DNA of 64,000 nucleotides, taken from IMG/VR virus record IMGVR_UViG_3300030060_003910, positions 1 to 64,000 of that record. One strand, written 5' to 3'. This document shows positions 4,477 to 47,642 of the stretch, piece by piece. Source of the DNA: a virus. A program made the translations under genes and the position numbers. Each line of letters starts with the position of its first letter. Position 1 is the first letter of the stretch. The notes under the pieces are model-generated. The model did not search any database and had not been told where the DNA came from. It saw nothing but the letters and a program-made list of their open reading frames with translations.

Positions 4477-5180
4477 TGTAATCTCTCCTGCATTTTACTT
4501 TTAATATCCAACCAAATCTCAGGATTGTTCTGTGCAAGCACTTCTTGAACAATTTGCATCTGTGCGACAATAATTGTGTCCTGTCTCTTATGAATCAATT
4601 TACCCTTGAACTCCATAAGATACTTCAAAGATTCTCTAATTTCTCTTGCTAACTTTGTTAAAGCATCAATCATCTTAGGGTCAAGGTCATTCCCTAAATC
4701 ATTGAATACTTGCTCTAAACGCATGTCCAACTTCTGCACATTGTTTGAAAGCAAATCAACTTCATTTACTTCCTTTTTCGCTATCATCATGGCCGCAGAT
4801 TCTTGGACGATTGGGGCCAAGTGGTGCTTCATGTGGCGTTGCACCTGCGTTTTTGTGGTGTTGAGGGCAGAAGAAACAGCCTCACTTGAAATATTACCTT
4901 CTTTTAATGCTTGTTCGTAGTGTTTCCTCATTGGGTCTGTGCATAGAACACATTGAGGATTTGACGACATTTTGTATTCGCCCATGTGGTTTCTTTGATG
5001 TTGTGCCGCAGTTCCGCTTCTCCAATTATGAAGTGTGTCCAATTCGTCGCAGGTCGCCTGTCCTGTTTCAAGAGCCGATTCAAGTTCTTCTCTATTTGGT
5101 GCTTGACAAAGCCCACAACGCTTACGATTAACTGTCATATTATCACAAATCATACTTTGCTGCAAAACTTTTAAAACCAT
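4473..5180 (-). CDS. Duplicated Zn/HTH-like DNA-binding protein; candidate terminase small subunit (true start probably near 5153/5138)
   Basis: Two CxxC...HxxxH units (CGLC...HQRNH; CVLC...HMKHH) followed by a coiled coil; function inferred from architecture only. Confidence 0.4.
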   Translation of the reverse strand: MVLKVLQQSMICDNMTVNRKRCGLCQAPNREELESALETGQATCDELDTLHNWRSGTAAQHQRNHMGEYKMSSNPQCVLCTDPMRKHYEQALKEGNISSEAVSSALNTTKTQVQRHMKHHLAPIVQESAAMMIAKKEVNEVDLLSNNVQKLDMRLEQVFNDLGNDLDPKMIDALTKLAREIRESLKYLMEFKGKLIHKRQDTIIVAQMQIVQEVLAQNNPEIWLDIKSKMQERLQ

Positions 5181-5448
5181 TTAAATAGGTCATAAACATG
5201 TCTGTGCCAATGCTATCTTCCATTTTCATAATCAATTCTTCCATAGCCATGAGGTCATCTTCATCGTAAATTGTTGTAAATTTCATATCTGATTTAATTC
5301 TTTTAACTATTTTCTTATGTCTTTCAGTTTGAAATTCTTTTTCTTTCTCGGCTTTTTCTTTATCATGTCTTTTCATATCTTTAGGCGCATATTTGCGACC
5401 CAATCTGCGGGCTTCGTCCATATCAATTTTAAGAACATTTTTCCACAT
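5143..5448 (-). CDS. Small protein with MWKNVLK tag
   Basis: 101 aa, shared N-terminal motif. Confidence 0.65.
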   Translation of the reverse strand: MWKNVLKIDMDEARRLGRKYAPKDMKRHDKEKAEKEKEFQTERHKKIVKRIKSDMKFTTIYDEDDLMAMEELIMKMEDSIGTDMFMTYLNGFKSFAAKYDL

Positions 5449-5449
5449 T

Positions 5450-6625
5450 CTACTCTCTCCACAATAATTGTTGCCACATTTTAGAAATAACCTTTTGGTC
5501 AGGCTTCATTCTAAAACCTCTTCCCTTTGGCTCATCATATGTTTTGGGGAATGCTTCCTTTGCTGTCTTTCTATAATCAAAGCCAGTCTTTCTTTCTTGT
5601 TGCCATGCTCGGAAACCATTTGGTGCTTTCTTGGTATTCTTTCGCTTTAAGGCTCTATCTACTAAATTGATAATGGGTAAAGCAGTAAGTTTAATTCCCG
5701 AAACTGTTCCAGCCAAAGAATCCTTCTTTCCTTCTTCACCGAGGTTGGCAACTTTTCTTGCCAATGCTTGTTCTTTAGAGTTAGGCTTAATTTCAAAATT
5801 TGTGGCTTTTAATTCAGACCGAATCTTATTTGTAAGCAATCTACCGCCAGCATTCCAATAATTGCTATCACGAACAATCTTATTAAAAAAGATTTCAACA
5901 GACCTAATTCCGTCAATGTCTTCACCATCAACATCTGTGGGAATTTTAACCACATCAACTTCAATTTCCATATCATCAAGGTCTTCAACGGCTTGCTTCA
6001 TAATCCACAAAAGACCTCTTGGATTCGCAAACTTAGTTTTGACTTTTGAGAATAATGCCTGATGGGGAGGATTTCCTCCTTCAAATCCATCAATGTCAAT
6101 AACATGGGCTAACCACTCATCAGGAACTTTAGTGACTCCTTTATTTCTTTTAGCATACCATTCTGTCGCATAATGTCCTTGAACTGTGCGAGGTCTTTTC
6201 TTTTGACCTGTTTTGGTTCTTTCAACCTCAGTAAAAAGAATAAATGCTGGGTCACGGGCTGGCCCTTTTGCACCAGCATCACTTCCTTCACGATAATAAC
6301 TTTCTAGTGTTTTAGCCTGTTCTCTAATAATTTCTTCATGTTCGCCATCAAATAAATCATTATCAACAATGGCTTCAATAAATTCAATAAACTCAATAGC
6401 ACCTTCACCATCACGGCCTTTATTTCTACTTCCTGCACGAATATTATTCATCATGTGCGTTTTGAGAAACATATACAAATTAGGAACATTCTTAACTTGC
6501 ATAGCCGCACCTGAAATACCTTGACAGGTCTGCCTCCAAGTGTTAAATTCATTCACGAACTTAAACTCGCTTTGATTGACTTTATTTCCTTTATGGGGCT
6601 GAAAGTTCTTTTTCTTCTTACTCAT
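5450..6625 (-). CDS. Basic hypothetical protein
   Basis: 391 aa, K/R-rich, coupled to neighbours. Confidence 0.65.
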   Translation of the reverse strand: MSKKKKNFQPHKGNKVNQSEFKFVNEFNTWRQTCQGISGAAMQVKNVPNLYMFLKTHMMNNIRAGSRNKGRDGEGAIEFIEFIEAIVDNDLFDGEHEEIIREQAKTLESYYREGSDAGAKGPARDPAFILFTEVERTKTGQKKRPRTVQGHYATEWYAKRNKGVTKVPDEWLAHVIDIDGFEGGNPPHQALFSKVKTKFANPRGLLWIMKQAVEDLDDMEIEVDVVKIPTDVDGEDIDGIRSVEIFFNKIVRDSNYWNAGGRLLTNKIRSELKATNFEIKPNSKEQALARKVANLGEEGKKDSLAGTVSGIKLTALPIINLVDRALKRKNTKKAPNGFRAWQQERKTGFDYRKTAKEAFPKTYDEPKGRGFRMKPDQKVISKMWQQLLWRE

Positions 6626-7463
6626 CCTTCTTCCTCCGTTTCTTTCTACCTCTTACCACCTTATTAAACATAGCGGGGGCAGAACCCGTAGTGACAGCAC
6701 CAACCATTTTTAGTTCTTCATCACTAAATGAAGCACTATTATTAGGGAATTTATTGTAAGCCTCTATTTTTTCAAAGAACTTTCTATTTTCTTCACCATA
6801 TCTTTCAATCCAAGAATTGATGTCATCTGGGTTAATTATATCACTAAAAGTGTCAGCAGGATTTTGAGTTCTAGCGGTCACTTCAAGCCTTGCTAATTTA
6901 TTCTTAATTTTATCTTTAGTGGGTGTATCAACATTTATATTATCTGTAATTACCTCAGCCCATGCCAAAAACTTAGTTATTTCTGCAAGAGATTCTTTAC
7001 CTACTTGGCCGTCAAGACCCAACATCATTTCTAAGGCTGGAGGAATAACTTGCGTTTTTGTTGCAGGGTGTTCTATATATGACCGTAGCCTATAAAAAAT
7101 ATTATCTGGGAATTGTCCAGTAAAAGCACCATATTCCTTTGCGGCATCATCCATCGGTAATTGGTCAAAACCCATACCAGCATGAGTCGCTTCGTGCATA
7201 ATTGCCCTAATAACAAATTCTGTGATTTCTCTCTCTGTTGGCTGTCTGTCTAGTTTTCTTCTAAGATACCTATAAATTTCATGGTGGTTAATTCTAATTT
7301 CTTCATCTACCATTTCTTTTAATTTAGGTTTTTTTCCTGCCATAATCATACGAAACATTTCAGAAGTATTAATGGGCTTGCCTGATATACCATAATGCCC
7401 AAATCCTCTAATGCTTGAATCAAAGTCAATATCTTCAACTTTAAGAATATCAAACCAGCCCAT
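6618..7463 (-). CDS. Zincin-like metallopeptidase with MGWFDILK tag
   Basis: HEATH (HExxH) motif with a downstream E; internal ATG at 7463 gives the family N-terminal tag. Confidence 0.6.
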   Translation of the reverse strand: MGWFDILKVEDIDFDSSIRGFGHYGISGKPINTSEMFRMIMAGKKPKLKEMVDEEIRINHHEIYRYLRRKLDRQPTEREITEFVIRAIMHEATHAGMGFDQLPMDDAAKEYGAFTGQFPDNIFYRLRSYIEHPATKTQVIPPALEMMLGLDGQVGKESLAEITKFLAWAEVITDNINVDTPTKDKIKNKLARLEVTARTQNPADTFSDIINPDDINSWIERYGEENRKFFEKIEAYNKFPNNSASFSDEELKMVGAVTTGSAPAMFNKVVRGRKKRRKKDE

Positions 7464-7465
7464 AT

Positions 7466-7633
7466 TCACTCCCCCTGTCTCATTGGGCAACTTGGGCTAA
7501 GAGGCGGTGCTGGCAAACTTAATGGACACTTTTCATATTTAACGACCATTTGCTGACAACGGCGACAATAGCCTGTCTTTTGAACACGGCTTGCGGCATC
7601 TCTTTCGTCAAACTTGACGATTTCTTTCCACAT
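7466..7633 (-). CDS. Small Cys-rich protein with MWKEIVK tag
   Basis: Internal ATG at 7633; CxxC...C...C. Confidence 0.55.
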   Translation of the reverse strand: MWKEIVKFDERDAASRVQKTGYCRRCQQMVVKYEKCPLSLPAPPLSPSCPMRQGE

Positions 7634-7634
7634 C

Positions 7635-7844
7635 TCAATCTTTCCGAGAAAATGGATTTTTAGACTTAGGTTTCTTTTTAGCATCTTTTGCCGCTTCTTT
7701 CATTGACTCGGTTTTGTTTCCATCACCGTCAATATCAATAAAATCGGGCTTTGCTGCTTTTAGTTCTTCATCATCGTCAGTCTTTTCAGTCCCACAATGG
7801 GCCTTTTCATCCTCTTCCTTTCGTATAATATCTCTCCAACTCAT
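7635..7844 (-). CDS. Small protein with MSWRDIIRK tag and EF-hand-like DxDGDG motif
   Basis: KPDFIDIDGDGNKTESMKEAAKD, a DxDxDG Ca-binding-like loop. Confidence 0.65.
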   Translation of the reverse strand: MSWRDIIRKEEDEKAHCGTEKTDDDEELKAAKPDFIDIDGDGNKTESMKEAAKDAKKKPKSKNPFSRKD

Positions 7845-7963
7845 TTCTTCTCACCTGTTATCAAGTCTTTCTTTTGTTTTGCTTCTTCTTTGTCTAAACG
7901 CTTTGATTCAGCATCAAACCACGAATCTAAGTAAGTGCATCTTGTCATGTCAATTCCTCCAAA

Positions 7964-8620
7964 TTAGTAATAATATCCTCTTCTTTCGGCTCTTAATTGA
8001 CCTTCACTAAATCCTCTATCCATATTTGCGCCCATTTCATTCATTTCAGCAATAAATTGACTATATGTAATCTCTTCGGCTCTTAATTGTCTATAAAGTT
8101 CTTCGGCTCTTTTTTCGTCCATTCTGTCATCGTGTTTAATTCCGACATTAAATCCTAGCCTGTTCATAACTAAAGCAGTAAAAGCAGTAGGGTCAGTTAA
8201 TTCAAATGGTAAATGTATATTTTCTATTTCAGGGTAATCTCCGGCTACCCAATATGCTTCGGTGTCGGTGTCAAAATAAAGTATAATTTCTTTTCCTCTT
8301 GATTTGGCTTTTACCGCTACACCAAAATGAAGATGCCCCGACATATCATCGGGGGTGTTTTCATTTATTAAATCGGCCACAAAACATTCAACACCCAAAG
8401 TATTCAAAGCATCAATTCCTTTTTGAATATTAAATTGTTGAGCCTTATTAGAGACAAAAAGACTACTAGCATCTTTACTCCATGCGTTTTGCTTTAATCT
8501 TTCTTCTTCTCCCTCCATTCCCGGATTACTAGCCGTCCATTCCCATTCAAACTGCAAGTTCTTGGGCATAGAAGAGTATTTTTCGTTATTTTCCTTTTTA
8601 ATCGTTGTTTTCCATGTCAT
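7964..8620 (-). CDS. Hypothetical protein with MTWKTTIKK tag
   Basis: 218 aa, RBS AGGTGA. Confidence 0.65.
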   Translation of the reverse strand: MTWKTTIKKENNEKYSSMPKNLQFEWEWTASNPGMEGEEERLKQNAWSKDASSLFVSNKAQQFNIQKGIDALNTLGVECFVADLINENTPDDMSGHLHFGVAVKAKSRGKEIILYFDTDTEAYWVAGDYPEIENIHLPFELTDPTAFTALVMNRLGFNVGIKHDDRMDEKRAEELYRQLRAEEITYSQFIAEMNEMGANMDRGFSEGQLRAERRGYYY

Positions 8621-8812
8621 AACATCACCTTAAATTTCTCAAAATTTGGCTCGGAATTTTTTTGGCACTTGCGCCCTCATTTAAATTTTATGAAATGTAT
8701 TCCCAGGATAAAAACTTCTGCTTCAAAGTAGTTTATTTAAAGATAATGAGTTTGGCCGCCGTGTAAAAATGTTGTTATAACTAATCGGATTATCATAATT
8801 AATTTAATTATT

Positions 8813-9040
8813 TTAATTGCCAAAGTCTGTTAAACTGGTTTGTTTATCATATCTATTAATAAAATCATTAATATGGCTTTTAACTGTTTGTAGTTGCTGG
8901 CCTATTTCCCCTAGTTTAGTAATATCGGCTATACTCATATTCTTCATTTGTTTGCGTTTAGCCTTCATTTCAGATAAAATTTCAACAATCTCTTTATTGA
9001 TACCCTGTAATAGTTCTAATGCCTTATCCTCACTAGACAT
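8813..9040 (-). CDS. Small coiled-coil protein
   Basis: 75 aa, heptad pattern. Confidence 0.55.
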   Translation of the reverse strand: MSSEDKALELLQGINKEIVEILSEMKAKRKQMKNMSIADITKLGEIGQQLQTVKSHINDFINRYDKQTSLTDFGN

Positions 9041-9532
9041 ACTGTATCATGTAATGGGAGTAGGCCATACCCTATAATGGTGGCGGTTTTACCCTTGTTT
9101 AATTAAAGTTAATGCTTCAAAATGAGGCTTTTAAAGCATTTCGCTCTAGATGAGAAGAAATAAAAAATTTGAAACAAAGCCATATGGTTGTAGATTATGA
9201 ATGCGTGAAAAGTTGTTAATAACTACCATTTTCATCTATTGTCTTATTTTCATCTTCCTCTATGGTTTGCTATAGAACGCTATTGGTAACTACAAAATGT
9301 TTGTTTACAGCCATCTATGATGAATAACCATCTAATGCATCAACCCTAAATGATAGTTATTAAAAACATTAAAACCATATGGTGTTGCTTTGCTATAACC
9401 CCCAAGTGGGACGGGAAGAATTACCTCTTTTCTTCCCGCCCCCGTCTATCCCTCTATTCCCTGTTTGTTTGGGTCATAGTGCCATAACGAGAGGCTCATG
9501 GCTAACGGGCCGTTTTTGGGGTGCTACGGACT

Positions 9533-9778
9533 TCATGCCGTATTTGTTGAGTTTAGTCTTACAGAAATGCCATAATCATTTGAACTAATTTGGTAAGGGT
9601 AAGGAATACCCCAAATTAACTCATAATGGTCTGTGAAAGCCTTGATGAAGCGGTCAGCATCAAAACGCCCATTATCACGACGAAACATGAGAATCATGCT
9701 TTCAATGACTGGAACGGTAATGCCGTTCAATTCTGCTAAGGTTTCTGCTATCTTTTGGTAGTGCCTTCGTTGGAACAT
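9533..9778 (-). CDS. Cassette gene, hypothetical (MFQRRHYQKIA..., about 81 aa)
   Basis: Internal ATG at 9778 lies about 25 bp downstream of CCTTATA, implying a leaderless archaeal-type mRNA. Confidence 0.65.
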   Translation of the reverse strand: MFQRRHYQKIAETLAELNGITVPVIESMILMFRRDNGRFDADRFIKAFTDHYELIWGIPYPYQISSNDYGISVRLNSTNTA

Positions 9779-9892
9779 GATTAACCGCTTGATAAGCGGA
9801 TATAAGGTTTTATTACCAAAGTATGCAACCATATGGTAATTGCTTTGGTTTTACCTCAAGCAGTTTAGACCCATGCTTAGGGGTATTTGGGT

Positions 9893-10156
9893 TTAGATAA
9901 CCTTAGAGGCTGCCCAAACCTCAAGTTTTTGGACATCTTCGCTTCCAAGCGGGTTTTTCCGTGGAGTTGGGAAACCATGTATTTCACGATAATCGCGCAG
10001 ACCAAAACGACGGTTCAATTTATTGTTCACATATCTTTTCATTTTTTGATACTTATTCCAATGTATGTGGGAATAACCCAAACCGTTCATCTCATTGAGA
10101 CAAAACTCTTCCCCGCTAATTTTGCACACTCCCGTTATGGCTTTTTCTTTGCTCAT
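9893..10156 (-). CDS. Cassette gene, hypothetical (MSKEKAITG..., about 87 aa)
   Basis: ATG at 10156 lies about 25 bp downstream of CCTTAATA in the cassette arm. Confidence 0.6.
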   Translation of the reverse strand: MSKEKAITGVCKISGEEFCLNEMNGLGYSHIHWNKYQKMKRYVNNKLNRRFGLRDYREIHGFPTPRKNPLGSEDVQKLEVWAASKVI

Positions 10157-10271
10157 GTTAAACATTAAATTAATCATTTATTAAGGTTTTATCCAAAGTA
10201 TCAAACCATATGGTTAGGCTTTGCATTAACCCCATATAGGGGCTTCACAGGGGAAAACGCCGTGAAGAGCA

Positions 10272-10787
10272 TCATTCTTCCTCGGAAACCTCCATATCTG
10301 CTTTCACAGGGGTTGGCGTGATTTGAGGAACTCCGTCCTCAACAGCGAGTCCATCCCAACGATTTTCCTTAATGGCCTTGACCATGTAAGAATGCGCCTT
10401 ACTGCGGAAGGAATCAACCAATTCGCTAAAGGAGCCATAAACGCCGCCGGTTCGTCCGTGTGGCACAATAACCGATAGAATCATGTTGTGGTATTCAGTA
10501 GGGATTGCAGCAATAGCACCTGCCACTTTTTCCTCCACAGTCGCCAAAACAAGTTCCTGTTCGTCCGAAAGCGTGGATTCTCGCCCTCGTCGTGCCGCAG
10601 GAAAACCCTCCATAGTAGAGCCAATTGAACGAATAGCCGTCCAATAGGTGCTTCGCAGTTCATCTGTTCCCGCATTATCGCCCAAAGTGAGCGAAAGGAG
10701 AACAGCATTCAAGTTGTCGCTTTTTGGCTGTGTTTCAGCCCAAGCCCGCACTTTGTTTGTGTTCAATGTCCAATTCTTCATCTTCAT
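10272..10787 (-). CDS. Cassette gene, paralog family member 1 (LRSTYWTAIRSIGS / FPAARRGRES / PHGRTGG / RWDG)
   Basis: RBS GAGGTG before ATG 10787; clear similarity to 11410..11916. Confidence 0.8.
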   Translation of the reverse strand: MKMKNWTLNTNKVRAWAETQPKSDNLNAVLLSLTLGDNAGTDELRSTYWTAIRSIGSTMEGFPAARRGRESTLSDEQELVLATVEEKVAGAIAAIPTEYHNMILSVIVPHGRTGGVYGSFSELVDSFRSKAHSYMVKAIKENRWDGLAVEDGVPQITPTPVKADMEVSEEE

Positions 10788-10952
10788 TTTTTTCACCTCT
10801 TTCCTAAAAAAGATACTCCGCGTCGTTTTTCCCCTGTGGAGCAATAACCCACGGAGGTTGGCGTATAAGGTTGTTCCTACGCAAAGCGATTAACAACCAT
10901 ATGGTGTTACTTTGTTAATACCCTAAACAATACGACAAACAAGACATAAGGC

Positions 10953-11201
10953 ATGAACAAAGACAAAGCAAACCACATTATGAACCTTCTCGCAAAAACC
11001 TTTCCAAGCCTTGAACCGTGGCTTACTCGCCAATACATGGATGCCGTTATGAAGGATATGATACTCTATGCCGATGAACCACACGCTATGATTGGATTAG
11101 CGGAGATGGCCGCAAGTATTGAGGCTTTTGCTGATGCTATCGCTGAAGCCTCAATTGAAGAGATGTTTCATATTATGGCCGACATGATGGGGGGTGTTTG
11201 A
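10953..11201 (+). CDS. Cassette gene, Met/Ala-rich hypothetical protein (inverted cassette)
   Basis: 82 aa; in the only + strand cassette; ATG about 26 bp after CCCTAAA in the arm. Confidence 0.6.
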   Translation: MNKDKANHIMNLLAKTFPSLEPWLTRQYMDAVMKDMILYADEPHAMIGLAEMAASIEAFADAIAEASIEEMFHIMADMMGGV

Positions 11202-11363
11202 ATGATTTCCCATTGTCCTACTTGTAGTGCAGAATTGGCTAAAGATGATTTCATGTCTTTCGCTTTCATCTTAGGAGGCGATATTTGCCGTCATTGTCTT
11301 GATGACGGCCCTTCGGGGTCAAAAAAACAAAGCATGACCATATGGTTGTGCTTTGCCAGTTGA
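11202..11363 (+). CDS. Small Zn-finger protein reading through the 11338 site
   Basis: MISHCPTC...ICRHCLDD...MTIWLCFAS, 53 aa, starts right after the previous stop; not in the ORF track. Confidence 0.5.
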   Translation: MISHCPTCSAELAKDDFMSFAFILGGDICRHCLDDGPSGSKKQSMTIWLCFAS

Positions 11364-11409
11364 AAACGAAACCCCACCCGTAGGTGGGGCTGCGAGGGGA
11401 AAACCCGCA

Positions 11410-11916
11410 TCATTCCTCTTCTTGACCTCCTTCAGCCGATTTCACGGCAGGTGGGGTCAATGCTGGGATTTCACCGTTCATGGTTCCATCCCAACGACCT
11501 TCTTTGTAGCCCTTAACGAGAGCGTCATAGGCCTTTTTGCCCATTGACTGAGCCAAAGCCATGATGTCCTCAAATGCGCCACCAGTTCGCCCATGAGGGA
11601 GAATAACGGCGGTAATGAGGTCAGGGTTAGAAATGCCCGCAAAGGCAGTAATAACCGCATTCTTCACAGAAGTCGCATTTAGGTCTACTTCTTCGGGCAA
11701 AGATGATTCTCGGCCTCGGCGGGCGGCTGGGAAATCATCATAAGGACTCCCAATTGAGCGAATTGCTGTCCAATAGGTGGAGCGCAAATCATCGCTATCC
11801 GTTGCATTTCCAAGTGTAATAGACAAAGAAATGGCTTGACCCACTTCTCCCCTATCTTCAAGTTCAAGCCATGCTTGAACCGCATTTGTGTTTTTAATCC
11901 AGTTGTCTTGCTTCAT
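11410..11916 (-). CDS. Cassette gene, paralog family member 2
   Basis: RBS GGAGG before ATG 11916; shares the motif blocks of 10272..10787. Confidence 0.8.
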   Translation of the reverse strand: MKQDNWIKNTNAVQAWLELEDRGEVGQAISLSITLGNATDSDDLRSTYWTAIRSIGSPYDDFPAARRGRESSLPEEVDLNATSVKNAVITAFAGISNPDLITAVILPHGRTGGAFEDIMALAQSMGKKAYDALVKGYKEGRWDGTMNGEIPALTPPAVKSAEGGQEEE

Positions 11917-12101
11917 AATCAATTCCTCCAAAAAGGTTTGATGCGTCCGTTTTCCCCTCGGAGCAACCAATGGCGACCATAGGCGACTATGGTTGCTTTT
12001 TCATTAACACTCGCAAAGCGAAAAGCAACCATATGGTAATGCTTTGTTATTTACCCCAACGCTCCGCTATTAAGGGCATTTGAAGGGGTTATTACACTAT
12101 C

Positions 12102-12218
12102 TCACTCTTCTTCACTCTCCAAATGCGCCATCACGAGGATAGACGCTTCTATCACTAACCCATTCTTATTGCACAGCCTCACAAGGGCTTTAGCCAATTC
12201 GCACCAATCTACCTTCAT
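12102..12218 (-). CDS. Cassette mini-gene (38 aa, MKVDWCELAKAL...ESEEE)
   Basis: Read directly from the sequence; AT-rich box about 25 bp upstream; EEE ending is typical of this genome. Confidence 0.5.
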   Translation of the reverse strand: MKVDWCELAKALVRLCNKNGLVIEASILVMAHLESEEE

Positions 12219-12344
12219 TGTTCTTCCTAAGTGGGTATGCTCTTAATTTATTGATTTAAATCCTTAAAGCCCTAATTTAAATTTTAGCAGGGTATTTATA
12301 ACAAAGCAACAATACCATATGGTTGTTGTTATGCTTTGCAGTAA

Positions 12345-12926
12345 TAAAAACCATAGCGAAGGCTTCACCAAACGGACAGGGAAAAGCCTATGTTGGTTGC
12401 TTTTTGCGCTAATTTGTCCGTTTGGTGTGTGAGTAAAATAAAACGCCGCCTACTCCATACATATCCGACTAACCACGCTACTTTGTTTCCTCTCTCGTAG
12501 TCTTGAATAAATCCCATGGAATAAATTCAAGCGGAGTTTCTTTCACGATTTATTGCGCTGTGTTTCGGCTTTGTTTCACTATGGTTTTATGGCCACTAAT
12601 AGCCATAGGAATGTGAAGGGTGGGATGAAGAATTGGGTATCTCCAAGTATGATGCGATTAGGTCGCACTCATTTTGAACGCTCTAATTGTTCTTAAGAGC
12701 CATACTGCCGACTTCGTGAAGTTGGTTTGTGGCCAACCGCCTTTTGAGCCTTAATCACTTTCACAGGGAACAATTAATCTATGCCACTTGGCCGTCATAA
12801 CTGCTTTGTGTCCCACAACAGGAGAAATCGCACATTACCCCCGTTCAAAGGGCATTGATGTTAATCCCCTCCGGGGGGAGCGACCCCCCGAAGCAATAGA
12901 ACCGAGCGATTATCGCTTATGGTTCT
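12345..12926. ncRNA. Candidate large structured non-coding RNA filling one cassette
   Basis: No ORF of 60 aa or more inside; stems CACCAAACGGACA/TGTCCGTTTGGTG (12367-12427), AAAACCATAGCGAA/TTCACTATGGTTTT, CTTGAAT/ATTCAAG, CCGACTTC/GAAGTTGG, CGGGGGG/CCCCCCG (12872-12890). Confidence 0.55.
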
Positions 12927-13003
12927 CCATGTGCAAAGCAATATAGAACCATATGGTTTTACTTTGGTTAAACCCCTCAGCAATTGCTTCACAGGGGGGA
13001 TAA

Positions 13004-13366
13004 TCACCATTCATCCCTTGGGTTGAAGTAAGTGTGCCTACCTCGCTCATCGGAAGTAAATGAACCTCCCCAACCCATTTCATACGAGCGAGTTCGCATT
13101 TCGGCGTTGTCCTCACGAATGCGCTCATTGATGTCTTTTTGAGTGTAGTGGAACGGCTTGTGTTTCTTGGCGTATTCCTTCCAAATTGGAAGAATTTCAT
13201 CCAAGTCGTCCTTTTCCATCATCTCTTCGGAAACATCAGCAGTTTCCCAAAAGGTTTCGTAGATGGTATCTACGCAGAAGAAATACCTAATTCCTTCCTC
13301 GTTTCTAACCCATCGGTTTTCCCTATCTGTTTTTTCATCAAGCCATTCATAAAATGTTTTTGCCAT
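13004..13366 (-). CDS. Cassette gene, acidic Trp/Glu-rich hypothetical protein
   Basis: 120 aa, RBS GGAGG, CCTTAAG in the upstream arm. Confidence 0.75.
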   Translation of the reverse strand: MAKTFYEWLDEKTDRENRWVRNEEGIRYFFCVDTIYETFWETADVSEEMMEKDDLDEILPIWKEYAKKHKPFHYTQKDINERIREDNAEMRTRSYEMGWGGSFTSDERGRHTYFNPRDEW

Positions 13367-13559
13367 TTTTTAACCTCCAGCGAAAAAATGAGAGTAGTGG
13401 GTGCTTAAGGTATTATTTATTCAAAGTAAATAATACCATATGGTTTGAATAAATCAAAGAGCGCAGAATGTTCTTATTTAGCCATATTCAAACACGCTGA
13501 AACAGGGAGGATTTTCAGCCCCCGAAAATCCGTCAAATTTGACAGGGTGTTTCTCAACT

Positions 13560-14030
13560 GTGGTTATATTAATTCGTATTCATATTCTAATATGAATATT
13601 AGTATTATAGTAAAATAAATGGGTTGTCTCATGGTCGGGAGGGGATGAGATGAGACAACTCACGGAAGAATCATCAAGGTTATGCAACATAAGTAAAAAT
13701 ATATTTCTATTATCTCATTATCTCATCATCTCATCATCATCATCACTACTACTACACAACCCCTTATTTTCTTAGGGGTATGGAGAGAGAAACATTCCCC
13801 TTTTCGGATGAGATGAGATGAGACAACTTATTTTTGCAGGTTTCCGCAAGGTTCTAAGGGGTTGTGTTGCATAACCCCGTTGTCTCAAGATGAGACAACA
13901 GGCGAGACAATCTCATGCAGGGGGGCTTTGAAGTTATTTCAATGGGCGAACTATTGTTGAAAATAAAATCTATTTGATTCAACAACCGAATTAATTTATC
14001 ATTTAAGTTAAAATATAAAGGTGAAAAAAG
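13560..14030. repeat. Iteron-like ATGAGACAAC repeat cluster with AT-rich flanks; candidate origin or genome terminus
   Basis: ATGAGACAAC at 13650, 13818 and 13890; inverted copies at 13623 and 13879; ATGAG/CTCAT tandems; AT-rich tracts near 13565-13620 and 13950-14020; lies at the strand switch. Confidence 0.6.
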
Positions 14031-14103
14031 GGTAGGCAAACTGCTGAGTCATTAAGGAAAAGTTAGTAATTCCCTCAAAGGAAGTGCATTCGGAGGCATT
14101 TCA

Positions 14104-14118
14104 GGACTCCTTTATATA
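14104..14118 (+). promoter_or_regulatory. Archaeal-type promoter GGACTCCTTTATATA
   Basis: TATA box about 50 bp before 14170; identical 15-mer at 22087 and 39732. Confidence 0.75.
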
Positions 14119-14169
14119 CCTCAAGACAACTGTTGAGAATACCCCGCAAAGGGGAAGGAGAGATATAAC

Positions 14170-14646
14170 ATGGATGATACCACATGGGAAAGCCTCGTCA
14201 TTGAGGTGAACGAATACCTAGAAGCCGACACTACGCTTGATGCTGGATTGCGTCAGGTCGTTGAACTGAACCTGCAAATTGGGACAAACAACCCCGATGA
14301 GCGAACTGCCGCCGAAGGTGCGCTTAAAGCACTTTTGAAGGGAAGAGATGGAACCCCGTTCCGCCGAGGCCAAAAGAGCGCAGTTCCAGCCGCAGTTCGT
14401 GTTTCAATTGACCGAATCTGTGGAGTTGTTGAAGAAGCCTCTATTGGCTACTACAACCATGATGCAGTTATTGGTGCAATTACCATGAAGCACATCAAAT
14501 CTGGTGGCGGTGCTTATGATGACGCAGAAGATTACGCTTCTGCTGTTGTTAAGCGAACCCGAAACAATCTTGGCAAAATGTTCAAGAACGGTTCTTGGGA
14601 CGGTAGCGTTGATTCCCTTTTAGGAAACGACGAAACCACGCTTTGA
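14170..14646 (+). CDS. Distant third member of the cassette paralog family
   Basis: PFRRGQKS, HIKSGGGAY and KNGSWDG align with PAARRGRES, HGRTGGAF and KEGRWDG. Confidence 0.7.
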   Translation: MDDTTWESLVIEVNEYLEADTTLDAGLRQVVELNLQIGTNNPDERTAAEGALKALLKGRDGTPFRRGQKSAVPAAVRVSIDRICGVVEEASIGYYNHDAVIGAITMKHIKSGGGAYDDAEDYASAVVKRTRNNLGKMFKNGSWDGSVDSLLGNDETTL

Positions 14647-15393: not shown

Positions 15394-16821
15394 ATGAAAC
15401 ATACAAATGAACAAATCGCAATCTTTGATTGCATAGAAAAAACAGAAGACCACCTAATTATTAATGCAGGTGCAGGAACAGGGAAAACGACAACGATTGT
15501 TGAAGCAGCAAATCGTATCAATGGACAGAAAGCCGCATTCTTGGCTTTCAATAAATCTATTGCTACTGAATTAGCAGAAAGACTTCCAACTGGCGTAGAA
15601 GCGAAAACCTTCCACGCATTCGGATTCGCTGCGATTCGTGCGGCTGGCGTTAAAACAAAGGTGAACAACTTTAAGGTCAATAACATCATTAAAGAACTTC
15701 ATGGTGCTGATTTCTATGTCGCTCCACTAAAGAAACTTGTTTCTCTGGTTAAGGGAAGTATGGTTGATGGAACCGACAAAAAAGCAATCAACCAACTGAT
15801 TGATGAATACAATATTAACTTCAATTCTGACCGTGAAGAACGAATTGCAGTAGAATCAATACCTGCAATTCTCACGATGTGCCGAACCCAAACCCATATC
15901 ATTGATTTTGACGACATGATTTGGATGCCCATTGTTAATGGCTATCCTTTCCCAAAATACGATGTTTTGTTTGTTGATGAAGCACAGGATTTCAACGAAG
16001 TGCAACGAGAAATGATTTCTTTGTGCGTCAATGGTGGCCGTTGTATTATTGTTGGTGATAAAAACCAAGCAATTTATGGCTTCCGTGGTGCTGATTCAAA
16101 CTCAATTTCCATGTTCCGACAACGACTTCTCAAGGGTGAGAAAAAAATCAGCGAATTTCCTCTCTCAATTACTTGGCGTTGTCCTAATTCGGTTGTTCGT
16201 GAGGCCAACCGATATGTGCGTGAGTTTAATGCTCCTGATTTTGCCGAAGAAGGCACAGTTATCGTAGATGCTCCGTTCAATCCACAAAGAAATGATATGG
16301 TTCTTTGCCGATACAACGCTCCTTTGGTGTCTGCTTTCTATGATTTGATTTCACAGGGTAAATCGGCGTATGTTCTTGGTCGTGATATGACGAAGGGTTT
16401 AATTACTGCCGTTCAAAAGATTTCTAAGAACAACCACATGGGCGTTGAAGAGTTCACACAGTTATTCCAAAAAGACTTCGCTTACAACTATCAACGACTT
16501 CTTGACCAAAACAAAGAGAATCAAGCGATGGCTCTTGAAGATAAGCGTGATTGTATTATGATTTTCGTCAAGAAAGCAACGACTGTTGGTGGAATCATTG
16601 AAGAGATTAAGCGTGTCTTTGATGGAAATGATAAAGGTGAAATCATGCTTTCAACTGTTCACAAGGCTAAAGGTCTTGAAGCAGACAATGTTTATATTCT
16701 CGCAACTGAGCGAATGCCTCACCCAAATGGAAGTTTGGAAGAGAACAACATTTGCTATGTAGCGATTACACGGGCCAAAAAGAATTTGTTCTATTGTGGC
16801 CCAAAACCAGGAAAAATTTGA
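15394..16821 (+). CDS. UvrD/Rep-like SF1 helicase
   Basis: AGAGTGKT, DEAQD, VGDKNQAIYGFRGA, STVHKAKGLE and YVAITRAK motifs. Confidence 0.92.
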   Translation: MKHTNEQIAIFDCIEKTEDHLIINAGAGTGKTTTIVEAANRINGQKAAFLAFNKSIATELAERLPTGVEAKTFHAFGFAAIRAAGVKTKVNNFKVNNIIKELHGADFYVAPLKKLVSLVKGSMVDGTDKKAINQLIDEYNINFNSDREERIAVESIPAILTMCRTQTHIIDFDDMIWMPIVNGYPFPKYDVLFVDEAQDFNEVQREMISLCVNGGRCIIVGDKNQAIYGFRGADSNSISMFRQRLLKGEKKISEFPLSITWRCPNSVVREANRYVREFNAPDFAEEGTVIVDAPFNPQRNDMVLCRYNAPLVSAFYDLISQGKSAYVLGRDMTKGLITAVQKISKNNHMGVEEFTQLFQKDFAYNYQRLLDQNKENQAMALEDKRDCIMIFVKKATTVGGIIEEIKRVFDGNDKGEIMLSTVHKAKGLEADNVYILATERMPHPNGSLEENNICYVAITRAKKNLFYCGPKPGKI

Positions 16822-25195: not shown

Positions 25196-26353
25196 ATGAA
25201 ACTAAGAATTAAAAAACCAAATGATAGTAATGATTATTTTGAAACAAACATTACTTGTGCTACCTATGCTTTTAGGGACATTATGACAGTTGGTTATCTA
25301 CGAAATGCTAAAGACCCAATCCAAGCAGGATTAGAAGCCTTTTGGAAAGATATTATTTCTCCTAGAAAATCAAGGAGAACCTATTATAATGGCTTTGGAT
25401 ATAACTTTCATCATATTGTTTTTATTGAAGGTTGCCCTATCGTTCTTTCAAGAGAAGGCATTCGTTATCAATTGAATGGTAAGTCTTACAGCCTTGCTAC
25501 TATTTGTTCAGCACTATCAAGGATTACCTATAAATCATGTTTTGAGAAGAAGCCAGAGGCTTTGTTGTCTGCTTTGTATTCTACACTCAATTTGCCAGAA
25601 AATGTTAAGTATTGTATTGAAAATCGTGCACCATTTCATTTCTTCCAAGACTTTGAAAAGCAAGATGTTCGTTTGAATGTGGTTCAAATTGATGATAAGA
25701 TGCTTGCTATGGAAATTAGCGATGGTGTTTGGGGTGAAATAACTCCTAAGCAACTAGACTCTTACTGTAATTTTTATGTTCATGGTAAGCGCAGAGGCTC
25801 ATGGAAGTATCTTTCTCCTAAATCCCTATATACTAGGTTGATGGGTCGTGAACCAACGGAGGCTGAATTGAAAGTGATGGTTGCCTTTTTGATGCAGAAC
25901 AGAATGCAAGACATTGTGGACGCAAGAGCATTAGAATTGGTGGCTGATATGTTGATTCAACATAAAGGCCGACTATCTGCTGAGTATGACAATGATGGAG
26001 TATTGACTGACCTTTTCGTTAGAGGCAAGGATTATGACTGGCGATTGACAAATAATCGCTATAAGTCTGGTATTCAAATGGTTTCAACCTATGTCTGGCA
26101 ACCAGTCGTAGAAGCCATTAAGAGCAAAGACGACCTTAACGAAATCATTGATAAAAAATTATCCGAACCAGATTGGCGTGGCCCGATTTGTATTGATAAT
26201 ATGGCTGATGGTTCTCCATTGGGCGACCAATTCGCCGCAAGAGCATTAGCCCTTCTTAACGACTCTTTTACAATAACAATAGTGAATACGATTAAGCGGT
26301 ATCTTGCCGCCGAACCAAATGAATATAGGATTGATAATAATGATTTGCGATGA
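25196..26353 (+). CDS. Hypothetical protein; C-terminal region is a candidate divergent E2-like domain
   Basis: 385 aa; WRGPICID resembles the G-x-I-C-L active-site segment of E2 enzymes (inference). Confidence 0.4.
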   Translation: MKLRIKKPNDSNDYFETNITCATYAFRDIMTVGYLRNAKDPIQAGLEAFWKDIISPRKSRRTYYNGFGYNFHHIVFIEGCPIVLSREGIRYQLNGKSYSLATICSALSRITYKSCFEKKPEALLSALYSTLNLPENVKYCIENRAPFHFFQDFEKQDVRLNVVQIDDKMLAMEISDGVWGEITPKQLDSYCNFYVHGKRRGSWKYLSPKSLYTRLMGREPTEAELKVMVAFLMQNRMQDIVDARALELVADMLIQHKGRLSAEYDNDGVLTDLFVRGKDYDWRLTNNRYKSGIQMVSTYVWQPVVEAIKSKDDLNEIIDKKLSEPDWRGPICIDNMADGSPLGDQFAARALALLNDSFTITIVNTIKRYLAAEPNEYRIDNNDLR

Positions 26354-27197
26354 ATGTGGTAGTAATGATAACTCATTTGATGAGATACAAGGCGAAAGAG
26401 TTTGTAATAACTGTGGACTTATCTTAGTCCAAGAGATGTTTGAAGAAACCGTTCATATTTTAGATACGGGCGGAAACCTCAAACATTCTGCTGATAAAGG
26501 CAGATTAGGTTCTGTTATCACAGGTAAAGGTTCTTACAAATTCAATAAGTTCGGTAAGAATAGCGTGATTCCTCAACATATTCAAAATGCTTTAATGCAT
26601 TGTAATATGATTTTGGCTCATGTTGCTCCAGATTTGGGGCTAAACGAGCGTGTTGAGAAACTGTATCTTGATTTACATAACAAAGGCATATTTGGAAGAA
26701 GTCAAATTGAAGCAAGAGCAACGGCTGTTATCTTTTATGCTTTGAGAGAAAACGGAACACCTCATACCTTTGCAGAAGTTTCTGCTGAATTTGATGCTAA
26801 TTTAAAATCAGTTAAGAGATTAGTTAGAAAGATTAATCAAGTCTTTAGAAACAAAGCAGGATACAATCCTGTTAATCCACAGTATCTGTTAGAGAAAACT
26901 CTCAACGACATTACCGATGATTTAGTCTTTAGACGACAAACTATCAAAGTGTTGGAGTTCTTTGAAACAAAAGTAGCGCAGAATACCTTCAACAAAGGAA
27001 GGTCATATTATGCGTCTATCATTTGGATTTCAGCAAACATGAATGTGAACACGATGATAACTCAAAATCTAATCACAAAGAAAACGGGGTTCTCTCGTTT
27101 CAATATTAGGAGACAAACAAAAGCAATTCTATCTATGATTGGTTTAGAACTAGCCAGCCAAGTAAAGGGAAAACAATTAAGTGAATTAGGTGAATAA
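26340..27197 (+). CDS. tfb: Transcription initiation factor TFIIB/TFB homolog
   Basis: N-terminal Zn ribbon CDECGS...GERVCNNCGL and two cyclin-like repeats (GRS...A.VIFYALR; GRS..ASIIWIS). Confidence 0.85.
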   Translation: MICDECGSNDNSFDEIQGERVCNNCGLILVQEMFEETVHILDTGGNLKHSADKGRLGSVITGKGSYKFNKFGKNSVIPQHIQNALMHCNMILAHVAPDLGLNERVEKLYLDLHNKGIFGRSQIEARATAVIFYALRENGTPHTFAEVSAEFDANLKSVKRLVRKINQVFRNKAGYNPVNPQYLLEKTLNDITDDLVFRRQTIKVLEFFETKVAQNTFNKGRSYYASIIWISANMNVNTMITQNLITKKTGFSRFNIRRQTKAILSMIGLELASQVKGKQLSELGE

Positions 27198-34262: not shown

Positions 34263-34475
34263 ATGACAGATGAATTAGAAGTAAAAGGAACCATAGTCCG
34301 TAATGCTGAACTGGACTGTAAAATAAAGCGTGGTGTCTATTGGAACATAGATGTCATGGATATTCGTTGGTATCGTAATGACAAGCCAACAAATAAAGGC
34401 ATTCGTTTGAATGTTGATGAAGCAAAATTGTTATTACAAATTTTAAGGAGAGAATTAGATGAAGAGAGTAAGTGA
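34263..34475 (+). CDS. PC4-like ssDNA-binding protein
   Basis: DIRWY..DKPTNKGIRL motif. Confidence 0.7.
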   Translation: MTDELEVKGTIVRNAELDCKIKRGVYWNIDVMDIRWYRNDKPTNKGIRLNVDEAKLLLQILRRELDEESK

Positions 34476-46730: not shown

Positions 46731-47642
46731 ATGAACACAGATGAAAAATATGAAGCAAGAATTAACTCAATGAGGCCATTTACTTACGATTGGCAACCAG
46801 AAAATTATGACGACCCATCAAAGCCAATTTTGAAGATTAGTAAATCTTCTCTTGTTGGTGCATTTGCTTGGTGCAACAAGAAATATGAATTTTCATATAT
46901 CCAAAGATTACCTCAAGACCAAACAGAAGCCATGAGAAAGGGAACGGTTCTTCACAATAACCGTGAAGAATTTTTTGATGTTTTTGATATTAAGAAAGCA
47001 GAAACTATGAATAACTCCGAAGTGCTTGAATACTGCACTTCGCTTATGCCTATTGATGATTATTTTGATATTTCTTTAACAGTCGCCGCATTTGAAGCAC
47101 AGCGATTTATTGAAGCGAGAAGTGAGGGTAGAGTTGAAGAATACTTACCCGTCATTAATGAGCGAATGTTTGATTGTGAAATTACTGTTCCTCAAAATGT
47201 AAGTAAGAAATATCCTTTACAGCGAGATTATGTAGTAAGGCTTCAAGGCATCATTGACCGTGTGTTTATTGAGAACGGCAAACTTATTCCGTTTGAATAT
47301 AAGACAGGCGGTTGGAAAGATTCAAAGTTTAGTAGTATGCGGCAAGAAATGGCTTTTTATCAATTGATGATTGAAAATGCTCCCGAAGAAGTGCTTGAAA
47401 AGCATGGATTGACAAAAGACATGGAGGTTAGTCATTGGGGTTGGTATTATCCTGTTGCTAACCATATCACAGTTGAACCTGTTAAGAAGCGTTCAATGAC
47501 AGCACTTTGGGATAATATTGCTAAACTAATTTATACATATGAACAGGGAGAATTTCCGACTAGTTTTTGGAGAAGCACCTGTTCACAATATTGTTCGTAT
47601 TACGGTATTTGTCCTGCGGCACAAGAGGATGCGTGGCTATAA
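46731..47642 (+). CDS. PD-(D/E)xK Cas4/RecB-like exonuclease
   Basis: GTVLH, GIIDR, EYKTG, QMAFY-like motif, N-terminal C and C-terminal CxxxCxYxxxC. Confidence 0.8.
   Translation: MNTDEKYEARINSMRPFTYDWQPENYDDPSKPILKISKSSLVGAFAWCNKKYEFSYIQRLPQDQTEAMRKGTVLHNNREEFFDVFDIKKAETMNNSEVLEYCTSLMPIDDYFDISLTVAAFEAQRFIEARSEGRVEEYLPVINERMFDCEITVPQNVSKKYPLQRDYVVRLQGIIDRVFIENGKLIPFEYKTGGWKDSKFSSMRQEMAFYQLMIENAPEEVLEKHGLTKDMEVSHWGWYYPVANHITVEPVKKRSMTALWDNIAKLIYTYEQGEFPTSFWRSTCSQYCSYYGICPAAQEDAWL

Follow-up and report, generated by a model that had tools for sequence, protein, structure and literature searches.

The window analysed here comprises 64,000 nucleotides, the opening 64 kb of an IMG/VR virus record of 94,354 bp that is rated complete (IMGVR_UViG_3300030060_003910), and our subject is an array within it in which exact copies of a palindrome, CCATATGG, alternate with short units, most of which end in a pair of arms marked by the sequence CTTTG. 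The region is best explained as a hyperplastic block of self-contained accessory-gene cassettes beside a probable replication origin. We give an even chance to the more specific proposal that the palindromic sites are DNA junctions for orientation-free cassette exchange, probably by way of an end-joined intermediate and by an as yet unrecognised enzyme. Magroviruses rank among the most abundant archaeal viruses of the surface ocean and, to our knowledge, neither they nor their hosts are in culture. Judged by its gene content, which fits the published description of that group, the present virus is a group B/B1-type magrovirus, and arrays like the one described here are common to many magroviruses rather than peculiar to this genome.

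Cores, arms and cassettes of the array

All ten exact copies of CCATATGG in the window lie between 9180 and 13443 (at 9180, 9375, 9829, 10206, 10897, 11338, 12029, 12315, 12949 and 13436), while dinucleotide-preserving shuffles yield a mean of 0.63 copies and a maximum of 3. The entire 94,354-bp genome holds one extra copy, at 72755, which lacks CAAAG/CTTTG flanks. One-mismatch variants of the core occur at background frequency (2 within the array and 25 outside), so that the cores are all-or-none. The first-pass annotation of this DNA had placed ten cores at these positions and none elsewhere in the window, and every one of them is confirmed; the contrary possibility, that the motif occurs genome-wide at background frequency, comes down to the single armless copy outside the array. 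The array and its units, W1 to W9, are laid out as follows (G001 and G003 are related viruses discussed below):

9180..13443, no strand: whole array, with 10 exact CCATATGG cores, usually ACCATATGGT
9188..9374, no strand: W1, an armless non-coding backbone spacer with a core on each side (pattern 'L- -R'); 96% identity to G001, 72% to G003
9383..9828, minus strand: W2, with 3′ arm 9381-9400, gene 9533-9778 (open reading frame, ORF, open to 9832) and 5′ arm 9806-9830
9837..10205, minus strand: W3, with 3′ arm 9835-9855, gene 9893-10156 (ORF open to 10177) and 5′ arm 10185-10207
10214..10896, minus strand: W4, with 3′ arm 10212-10231, gene 10272-10787 (171 aa, helical family) and 5′ arm 10869-10898
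10905..11337, plus strand: W5, with 5′ arm 10903-10922, genes 10953-11201 and 11202-11363, and 3′ arm 11317-11339
11346..12028, minus strand: W6, with 3′ arm 11344-11373, gene 11410-11916 (168 aa, paralog of the W4 gene) and 5′ arm 11991-12030
12037..12314, minus strand: W7, with 3′ arm 12035-12055, a 38-aa ORF at 12102-12218 and 5′ arm 12291-12316; inverted in G001
12323..12948, no strand: W8, non-coding and highly structured, with arms 12321-12352 and 12921-12950
12957..13435, minus strand: W9, with 3′ arm 12955-12974, gene 13004-13366 (120 aa) and 5′ arm 13409-13437, which has an 11-bp stem

The 16 inward-facing arms of the eight central units had been described as sharing one pattern, and all 16 indeed align as ATGGT-spacer-(A/G)CTTTG-spacer-(A)CC. 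Searched across the genome, GGT-N3-10-RCTTTG-N5-12-ACC occurs 14 times in the array and once elsewhere (0.7 expected). The boundary cores 9375 and 13436 lack an outward CTTTG arm, as was first reported. The same layout is found in other viruses. A scan of IMG/VR with the pattern CAAAG-N2-12-CCATATGG-N2-12-CTTTG returned at least 119 stretches, and the statistics given below for arms and units of multiple arrays refer to the matches listed; among these, arrays are present on more than 100 contigs, many of them 60-100 kb long, with 3-14 cores each. Many arrays read -R LR..LR L-, with the outermost cores armed on the inner side only, and short armless backbone units between two cores, like W1, occur in other arrays too. 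The armless boundary cores, and arms that travel with their cassettes between relatives, bear out the earlier proposal that the arms belong to the cassettes and that CCATATGG is the junction.

W5 is the sole plus-strand unit, and it makes the junction at 10897 divergent and that at 11338 convergent. In the window, W2 has TTATAT after its 5′ arm and a start codon at 9778, 27 nt past the closing ACC of the arm; W3 has TTAATAAAT and a start at 10156, 28 nt past ACC; and the first gene of W5 starts at 10953, 30 nt past ACC. Leaders are longer in W4, W6, W7 and W9 than in W2, W3 and W5, and in W4 the sequence TTATACG after the 5′ arm is followed by a leader of ~100 nt with a Shine-Dalgarno (SD) motif. 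The same signals emerge when 215 units from the multiple arrays are oriented by their longest ORF. The consensus past the closing ACC of the 5′ arms is Y-Y-A-T-A-W-A, with A at position 3 in 84%, and in 36 of 150 units the ATG lies 27-30 nt past ACC, a peak that is sharper than the one for distance from the core. The spacing from ACC-YYATAWA to ATG thus follows archaeal geometry, in which a TATA box is centred ~26 nt ahead of the point where a leaderless mRNA begins. Leaders of 60-100 nt with GGAGG are present in other units. Beyond the 3′ arms, C-rich and then G-rich runs (CC..GGGG) form terminator-like hairpins. As judged from these signals, a unit is likely to be a self-contained expression cassette, composed of a 5′ arm, an archaeal TATA-type promoter, one or two small genes or a structured RNA, a GC-rich terminator-like hairpin and a 3′ arm, and the transcription units seem to exclude most arms and cores. 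The core itself was considered as a TATA box and set aside, because ATAT between CC and GG makes a poor one.

The cassette proteins have no significant match in Pfam or PHROGs. W8 is of a different kind. Its longest ORF is 52 aa, it is 78-84% identical in three relatives, and it folds beyond its shuffles on both strands (z -3.6 for plus, -5.4 for minus); both of its arms carry TGCTTTGCA, so that its ends can pair. We regard W8 as a candidate non-coding RNA of ~600 nt. An Rfam scan of the window reported two tRNAs only, with no match for the array or for W8.

Several smaller units of other magroviruses deserve mention. Tandem micro-cassettes of 80-134 bp stand between cores at L119:4202-4310, L074:3478-3590, L044:7602-7897, L050:9253-9359 and other places; each has a hairpin with a 7-bp stem and no CTTTG (GGTTCAT..ATGAACC), GGAGGG 3 nt further on, and an acidic micro-ORF of 6-9 codons (e.g., M-F-F-D-D-D-E). 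Motifs akin to these, GGAGGGG-ATGAGATGAGA, are present to the right of the window array. There are also 'empty' units (L014:5280-5316, L115:4212-4248 and L017:115-154) with only one hairpin of 29-32 bp between two cores, in which the arm closes with an ACC that already belongs to the next core, and many 5′ arms end in ACC-(YY)-ATAT, which resembles half a core.

Arm structure, cassette ends and rearrangement among relatives

When folded as single-stranded DNA, 15 of the 16 arms in the window form pairs between the core GG and the distal CC, which places CTTTG at the tip. Most of the predicted hairpins are weak, at -1 to -3 kcal/mol, and four are strong, at -7 to -12, the strongest being the 5′ arm of W6 (-12.2 kcal/mol); z-scores range from +0.6 to -6.6, eleven of them at or below -1.1. 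In the wider set, CTTTG lies 4-12 nt after GG in 68% of 773 unique arms. The contiguous Watson-Crick stem anchored on GG has a mean length of 3.84 bp, compared with 2.86 +/- 0.03 when 3′ halves are swapped among arms, and stems of at least 5 bp are found in 219 of 545 arms as opposed to 4 of 545 after the downstream sequence is shuffled. The bases that flank CTTTG, read on the outward strand, covary (R:Y), with 297 Watson-Crick combinations where 186 are expected, 63 G:T and 14 A:C. This covariation at the tip is equal in gene-5′ and gene-3′ arms (G:T at ~0.4 of expectation, A:C at ~0.1). In 20 pairs of orthologous arms, stems change more slowly than loops, and there are three clean compensatory pairs. 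Arm-specific complementarity is therefore real: that structure is kept while sequence varies, a claim made at the outset from the window arms, extends to the wider arm set, where pairing is clearly better than in shuffled controls.

Of the two strands of an arm, the one that reads outward from the core is the better folder in 234 arms and its complement in 107, which suggests that one particular strand, the outward one, is the strand that folds. Within stems, the G:T excess is modest after correction for composition (176:47 vs 796:322 in controls). The initial suggestion that the sites are recognised as hairpins stands in part: structure of the arms is conserved, and recognition as single-stranded DNA or RNA is an inference, with many arms thermodynamically weak. 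A bulge-helix-bulge (BHB) splice-site geometry was also considered and set aside, as the arms make an internal loop and not 3-nt bulges four base pairs apart.

Co-adaptation is evident between the two ends of a cassette. The arms at these ends agree in the bases around CTTTG at a frequency of 0.46-0.60, where 0.25-0.45 is expected, and they pair better with each other on a single strand, with a duplex energy of -17.6 kcal/mol compared with -15.0 for arms at a junction and -15.0 for random pairs (p 2e-5 against arms at one core and 2e-9 against random pairs). Where two arms meet at a core, their similarity does not exceed that of random pairs, and the idea that the site is an extended palindrome was dropped for this reason. 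The co-adaptation suggests that the ends of a cassette come together, whether at the palindromic junction of a circle or in a panhandle, and we take it as indirect evidence to that effect.

To compare cassettes between viruses, the arrays of four relatives were cut at the core centres. Units match end to end between viruses, yet their order differs. The window array (WIN) reads W1 to W9; that of G001, whose backbone is ~93% identical, reads W1 to W6, an extra unit of 395 bp, an inverted W7, W8 and W9, with identities between corresponding units of 72%-96%. At core 12029 the left side is identical in the two viruses and the right side is unrelated. W7 is inverted in G001 together with both of its arms and pivots exactly on the cores; being turned around in this way, the inverted allele cannot have entered by homology in its flanks. 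W2 matches unit 4 of G002a end to end at 85% identity, and W4 has end-to-end matches in G001, G002a and G004 at differing array positions. The family of W4 (family 1) precedes that of W6 (family 0) in the window array and in G001, and the order is reversed in G002a and G003. The expectation that cassettes would vary between relatives in content, order and orientation, and that the breaks would fall at the cores, was thus checked and found to hold.

The broader collection gives the same picture. Its 366 units fall into 295 nucleotide-level families, and 67 of 99 inter-contig alignments lie within 5 nt of both unit ends. The neighbours of homologous units among the 366 are homologous in 56 cases, flipped in 1 and unrelated in 92. 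Both orientations are found in the arrays, the minority orientation accounting for 22% of cassettes.

Outside viral records the sites are scarce. Among 185,579 cellular genomes, a 22-base pattern matched singly 43 times, each in one of various unrelated bacteria; these matches look like chance even though a rough expectation is ~3. The only array in a cellular genome is L162 (NZ_NZTP01000027.1, a 14.7-kb contig of an 'Altibacter sp.' metagenome-assembled genome, MAG), where five full sites fall within 2 kb; a magrovirus contig mis-binned into a flavobacterial MAG is the probable explanation. No site was found in Poseidoniales, the hosts, among the cellular genomes scanned. The record G002 (IMGVR_UViG_3300021958_000021, 184,733 bp) contains two arrays with different cassettes, at 5107-9028 and 99516-103194, and looks like two related magrovirus genomes joined.

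Possible roles of the sites and the genomic setting

If the sites are junctions for cassette exchange, the palindrome ACCATATGGT and the cassette-borne arms would together allow whole cassettes to be inserted, removed, inverted and swapped between co-infecting viruses. A crossover inside the symmetric core would make either orientation possible. The arms would serve as hairpin recognition elements, anchored on the GG of the core and folding on the strand that runs 5′ to 3′ away from it. Cassette ends would be co-adapted because they meet in an end-joined, probably circular, intermediate, and the junction of such a circle (3′ arm, core, 5′ arm) would be a better palindrome than any junction in the array. 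We infer from these patterns a dedicated enzyme that acts at the sites, folding of the arms in vivo and a circular intermediate.

A number of observations weigh against this interpretation. Pfam profile searches of the 94-kb genome gave no match at E<=1 for tyrosine recombinases (PF00589; control genomes 14/14 positive) or Y1 HUH nucleases (PF01797; control genomes positive), and serine recombinases (PF00239) are absent with control genomes positive. Among the Pfam matches listed for the 104 ORFs, which for the replicative half cover 25 of 40 families, there is no transposase and no homing endonuclease (LAGLIDADG). The enzymes that one might expect for such a system are thus undetected at the level of sequence, and the original remark that no integrase or HUH nuclease is recognisable in the window applies genome-wide, with resolvases included. 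Genome pairs that are 95-100% identical keep one cassette order, which implies that events are rare on an evolutionary scale and makes frequent programmed switching unlikely. No cassette is more similar than its backbone in the genomes compared, and the idea of recent cassette transfer between distant backbones was dropped on that account. Many arms are weak hairpins, with ~5 of the 16 window arms individually no better than their shuffles, and orthologous arms offer few double changes, of which 3 preserve the pair and 3 disrupt it. Finally, a promoter-like box abuts every 5′ arm, so that a regulatory role of the site is plausible, with recombination possibly a by-product, as has been proposed for promoter-early stem-loop (PeSL) cassettes.

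The main alternative is regulatory, and we think it possible though less likely than exchange. According to this scenario the sites are PeSL-like regulatory junctions, in which the palindrome is an operator or roadblock for a dimeric regulator, viral or from the host, that co-ordinates or insulates early promoters, the arms are upstream promoter (BRE-side) and terminator (T-rich) elements, and shuffling is a by-product of short-homology recombination of the RadA type. The position of ACC-YYATAWA directly past the 5′ arms, with the ATG peak 27-30 nt after ACC, would fit such a role, as would the CC..GGGG hairpins that flank the 3′ arms, and the A-rich distal half of the arm reads as BRE-like in one direction and as T-rich in the other. 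The exact 10-bp palindrome resembles the site of a dimeric regulator, the virus encodes a TFB-like protein, a RadA/KaiC-like ATPase, an XPF-type nuclease and a Cas4-like nuclease, and T4-type PeSLs behave in this manner (PMC2839356, PMC4122927). However, two-armed sites are found at 14 of 18 convergent 3′/3′ junctions and at 58 of 76 tandem junctions, 11338 being a convergent example in the window. Because full sites are equally common at convergent junctions, which have no promoter, a promoter role cannot account for these sites, and full sites also surround the non-coding unit. The arms are 19-31 nt long, so that the distance from core to TATA varies by ~12 nt. The sites share only 10 bp and CTTTG, which is little homology for general recombination, and an inversion that pivots exactly at the cores requires the palindrome itself. 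Complementarity within arms and co-adaptation of cassette ends would be left unexplained.

It is improbable, in our estimation, that the sites are chiefly signals in RNA. Transcripts would then start at the cores or cross them, and the arms would form hairpins at the 5′ or 3′ end of the RNA, or a panhandle, with a function in stability, processing or control of translation. In accordance with this, the arms tolerate G:T far more readily than A:C, folding favours the outward strand in 234 arms vs 107, and cassette ends are able to pair together; in the micro-cassettes, moreover, the SD-ATG lies 3 nt past the arm and leaves no room for a promoter, so that the arm must be transcribed there. On the other hand, the strand that folds better reads outward to either side of the core, and for 3′ arms this is the antisense strand; moreover, most cassettes have their TATA-like box past the 5′ arm and their terminator-like hairpin ahead of the 3′ arm, which would put the arms outside the transcript. 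There is no Rfam match, and the armless boundary cores are unexplained.

The remaining alternative concerns replication, and its evaluation depends on where the array lies. The array coincides with the switch from minus- to plus-strand genes and with the minimum of the cumulative GC skew, and its G+C content is 0.41-0.46, compared with ~0.36 in the remaining genome. Three features lie to its right:

13444..14169, no strand: right backbone flank, non-coding, with ATGAGACAAC / GTTGTCTCAT repeats, the strand switch and the GC-skew minimum
14170..14646, plus strand: third paralog of the helical family (28% identical to the W6 protein, E 3e-13) and the first gene past the array
15394..16821, plus strand: UvrD/Rep-type SF1 helicase, a conserved neighbour of the array in relatives

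Within the flank, the non-coding segment 13617-13902 has at least five copies of ATGAGACAAC / GTTGTCTCAT in both orientations, as well as GATGAGATGA / TCATCTCATC repeats. Given the GC-skew minimum and the strand switch, 13444..14169 is a candidate replication origin with iteron-like repeats. One could therefore imagine the core as a point of unwinding or nicking near the origin and the outward hairpins, on lagging-strand templates, as priming or loading signals, with breaks there causing recombination. The location of the array at the skew minimum and strand switch, near iteron-like repeats and a UvrD/Rep-type helicase, would agree with this, and the outward strands on both sides are what a core-opened bubble or a displaced strand would expose; yet ten sites interleaved with genes are without precedent, cassette-borne arms, co-adapted ends and armless backbone cores go unexplained, no initiator or nickase is identified in the genome, and we consider this scenario the least probable. 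Because of the strand asymmetry and the micro-cassettes, the RNA-level and replication scenarios are nonetheless retained.

Returning to cassette exchange, several proteins could participate. The genome encodes nucleases of the ERCC4/XPF-HhH type and of the Cas4-like PD-(D/E)XK type (46731-47639, plus strand) and a PC4-like single-stranded DNA-binding protein (34263-34472, plus strand); its match to a KaiC/RadA-like ATPase is weak. By similarity, the PC4-like protein and the Cas4-like and XPF-type nucleases are possible players at hairpin or branched DNA.

The helical family of ~170-aa proteins is the most constant companion of the arrays, with matches in 41 of 119 array loci among the matches listed. 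Its three paralogs in this virus (10272-10787 and 11410-11916 on the minus strand, 14170-14646 on the plus strand) share the motifs P-x-R-x-G-x-x-S-x-L-P, H-G-x3-G-G and G-R-W-D-G, and an acidic EEE tail ends two of the three, those of W4 and W6. The AlphaFold model of the family is confident (pLDDT 89). It has no sequence match in the PDB and no Foldseek match at E<=0.001, a search of the ESM Atlas was uninformative, and VIA-align gave only generic three-helix-bundle matches (Z ~8). By eye, GGGGAAAAC and its complement flank both of the paralogous genes inside the array, in the 5′ leader and past the stop codon (10240-10265 with 10815-10845, and 11385-11410 with 11940-11965); such pairs could form loop-loop or panhandle contacts in the mRNA, or could act as inverted DNA motifs.

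More doubtful, and put forward tentatively, is the further step that the array represents a new structure-read, orientation-free system, integron-like for self-expressed genes, in which an unrecognised recombinase or nickase reads core and arms and cassettes move as end-joined circles. Candidates for the enzyme would be the three-paralog helical family, another viral ORF without assignment, or a host enzyme.

The rest of the window is consistent with the assignment of the virus. It encodes a split family-B DNA polymerase, a Cpn60/TCP1-family chaperonin, an ATP-dependent ligase, a class II ribonucleotide reductase, an RFC-like clamp loader, a UvrD-type helicase, a portal, a prohead protease, a capsid protein and tail-tube proteins, together with tRNA-Leu and tRNA-Arg. 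Viruses of group B/B1 infect Marine Group II archaea (PMC5434244). A 297-aa ORF at 26304-27197 (plus strand) has an N-terminal TFIIB/TFB zinc ribbon (residues 13-41, E 2e-5, slightly short of the Pfam cut-off) and also matches the TFIIB cyclin repeat weakly (E 0.009); its product may be a TFB-like initiation factor that redirects the host RNA polymerase. No RNA polymerase family is among the Pfam matches listed (25 of 40 families for the replicative half), and a 2061-aa ORF is matchless, although remote homologs are possible.

Comparison with known systems

We found no description of these arrays in the literature searched. The two main magrovirus genome papers do not mention palindromes, promoters or hairpins, and a full-text literature search for CCATATGG gave primers and unrelated sites only, among the matches listed. 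By analogy, the closest described system is that of the PeSL cassettes in the hyperplastic regions of T4-type phages (Arbiol et al. 2010, PMC2839356; Comeau et al. 2014, PMC4122927), while integrons are closest in logic.

Like PeSL regions, the array consists of small ORFan genes in a plastic block, with boundaries at which a repeated composite motif lies beside a promoter and stem-loop, and insertions, deletions and replacements between relatives are bounded by the motif. By sequence, the array shows an archaeal form of the composite of terminator hairpin and promoter. For the T4-type PeSLs, excised mini-circles have been proposed and detected as vectors (PMC2839356, PMC4122927). The differences are in the parts. 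The magrovirus box is of TATA/BRE type, 23-26 nt before the ATG, whereas the PeSL promoter is of sigma-70 type; PeSLs are long similar repeats that supply homology, whereas the array sites share a 10-bp palindrome and CTTTG, with arms that are kept in structure. The array also has units in both orientations, co-adapted arms owned by the cassettes, and sites at junctions that lack a promoter.

Integrons, too, are arrays of small cassettes with sites that are conserved as folded structure and not as sequence, a property that sequence statistics indicate for the array. Both systems vary in the content and order of their cassettes from one relative to another, and the breakpoints fall at the sites. 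The triplet pair at the base of the stem, GGT:ACC in the array, has a counterpart in AAC:GTT of attC; the backbone site at the edge lacks a cassette part, and a circular cassette would rebuild one full site. In contrast to integrons, the virus has no IntI or any tyrosine recombinase match, and its sites have neither R''-L''/L'-R' boxes nor RYYYAAC...GTTRRRY. Owing to the perfect palindrome of the core, insertion would be directionless and cassettes point both ways. The cassettes appear from their sequence to carry their own promoter and terminator, whereas integron cassettes depend on Pc, and the array sits in a lytic-type tailed archaeal virus. With no IntI, no attC boxes, promoters of its own, no long homologous repeat and no sigma-70 promoter, the array belongs to neither integrons nor PeSL cassettes.

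Other parallels are more partial. REP/BIME-RAYT and IS200/IS605 elements are likewise short, intergenic, imperfect hairpins in inverted pairs with a conserved foot sequence, and folding of one particular strand is suggested for the arms, but the array genome has no Y1 HUH match and the sites have no GTAG-type tetranucleotide, and the array elements bound mobile gene cassettes instead of being dispersed and have both-strand symmetry around a palindrome. As in miniature inverted-repeat transposable elements (MITEs), there are unit-specific terminal inverted repeats (TIRs), more alike within a unit than between units, and every unit lies between identical 8-bp sequences, which could be read as a target duplication or as the product of reciprocal site-specific exchange. 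Here, however, a transposase is undetected among the Pfam matches listed, the genes are diverse, the TIRs are themselves hairpins, and the copies are tandem at one locus. At N4-type hairpin promoters, a virion-carried single-subunit RNA polymerase begins transcription a fixed short way downstream of the hairpin on the template strand; for the array, the sequence suggests a TATA-driven start beyond the arm.

With 295 families among 366 units, the array appears to be where the accessory and host-interaction genes of magroviruses turn over, and paired cores with CAAAG/CTTTG provide a simple marker for such regions in metagenomes. If it is true that an enzyme reads the sites, it would offer a new recombination tool as well as an explanation of viral diversification; even if the sites are regulatory, they would supply the first clear promoter and terminator models for viruses of Poseidoniales. 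We suggest that archaeal viruses may possess a cassette-shuffling device of their own, comparable to the PeSLs of T4-type phages and to integrons, but differently built.

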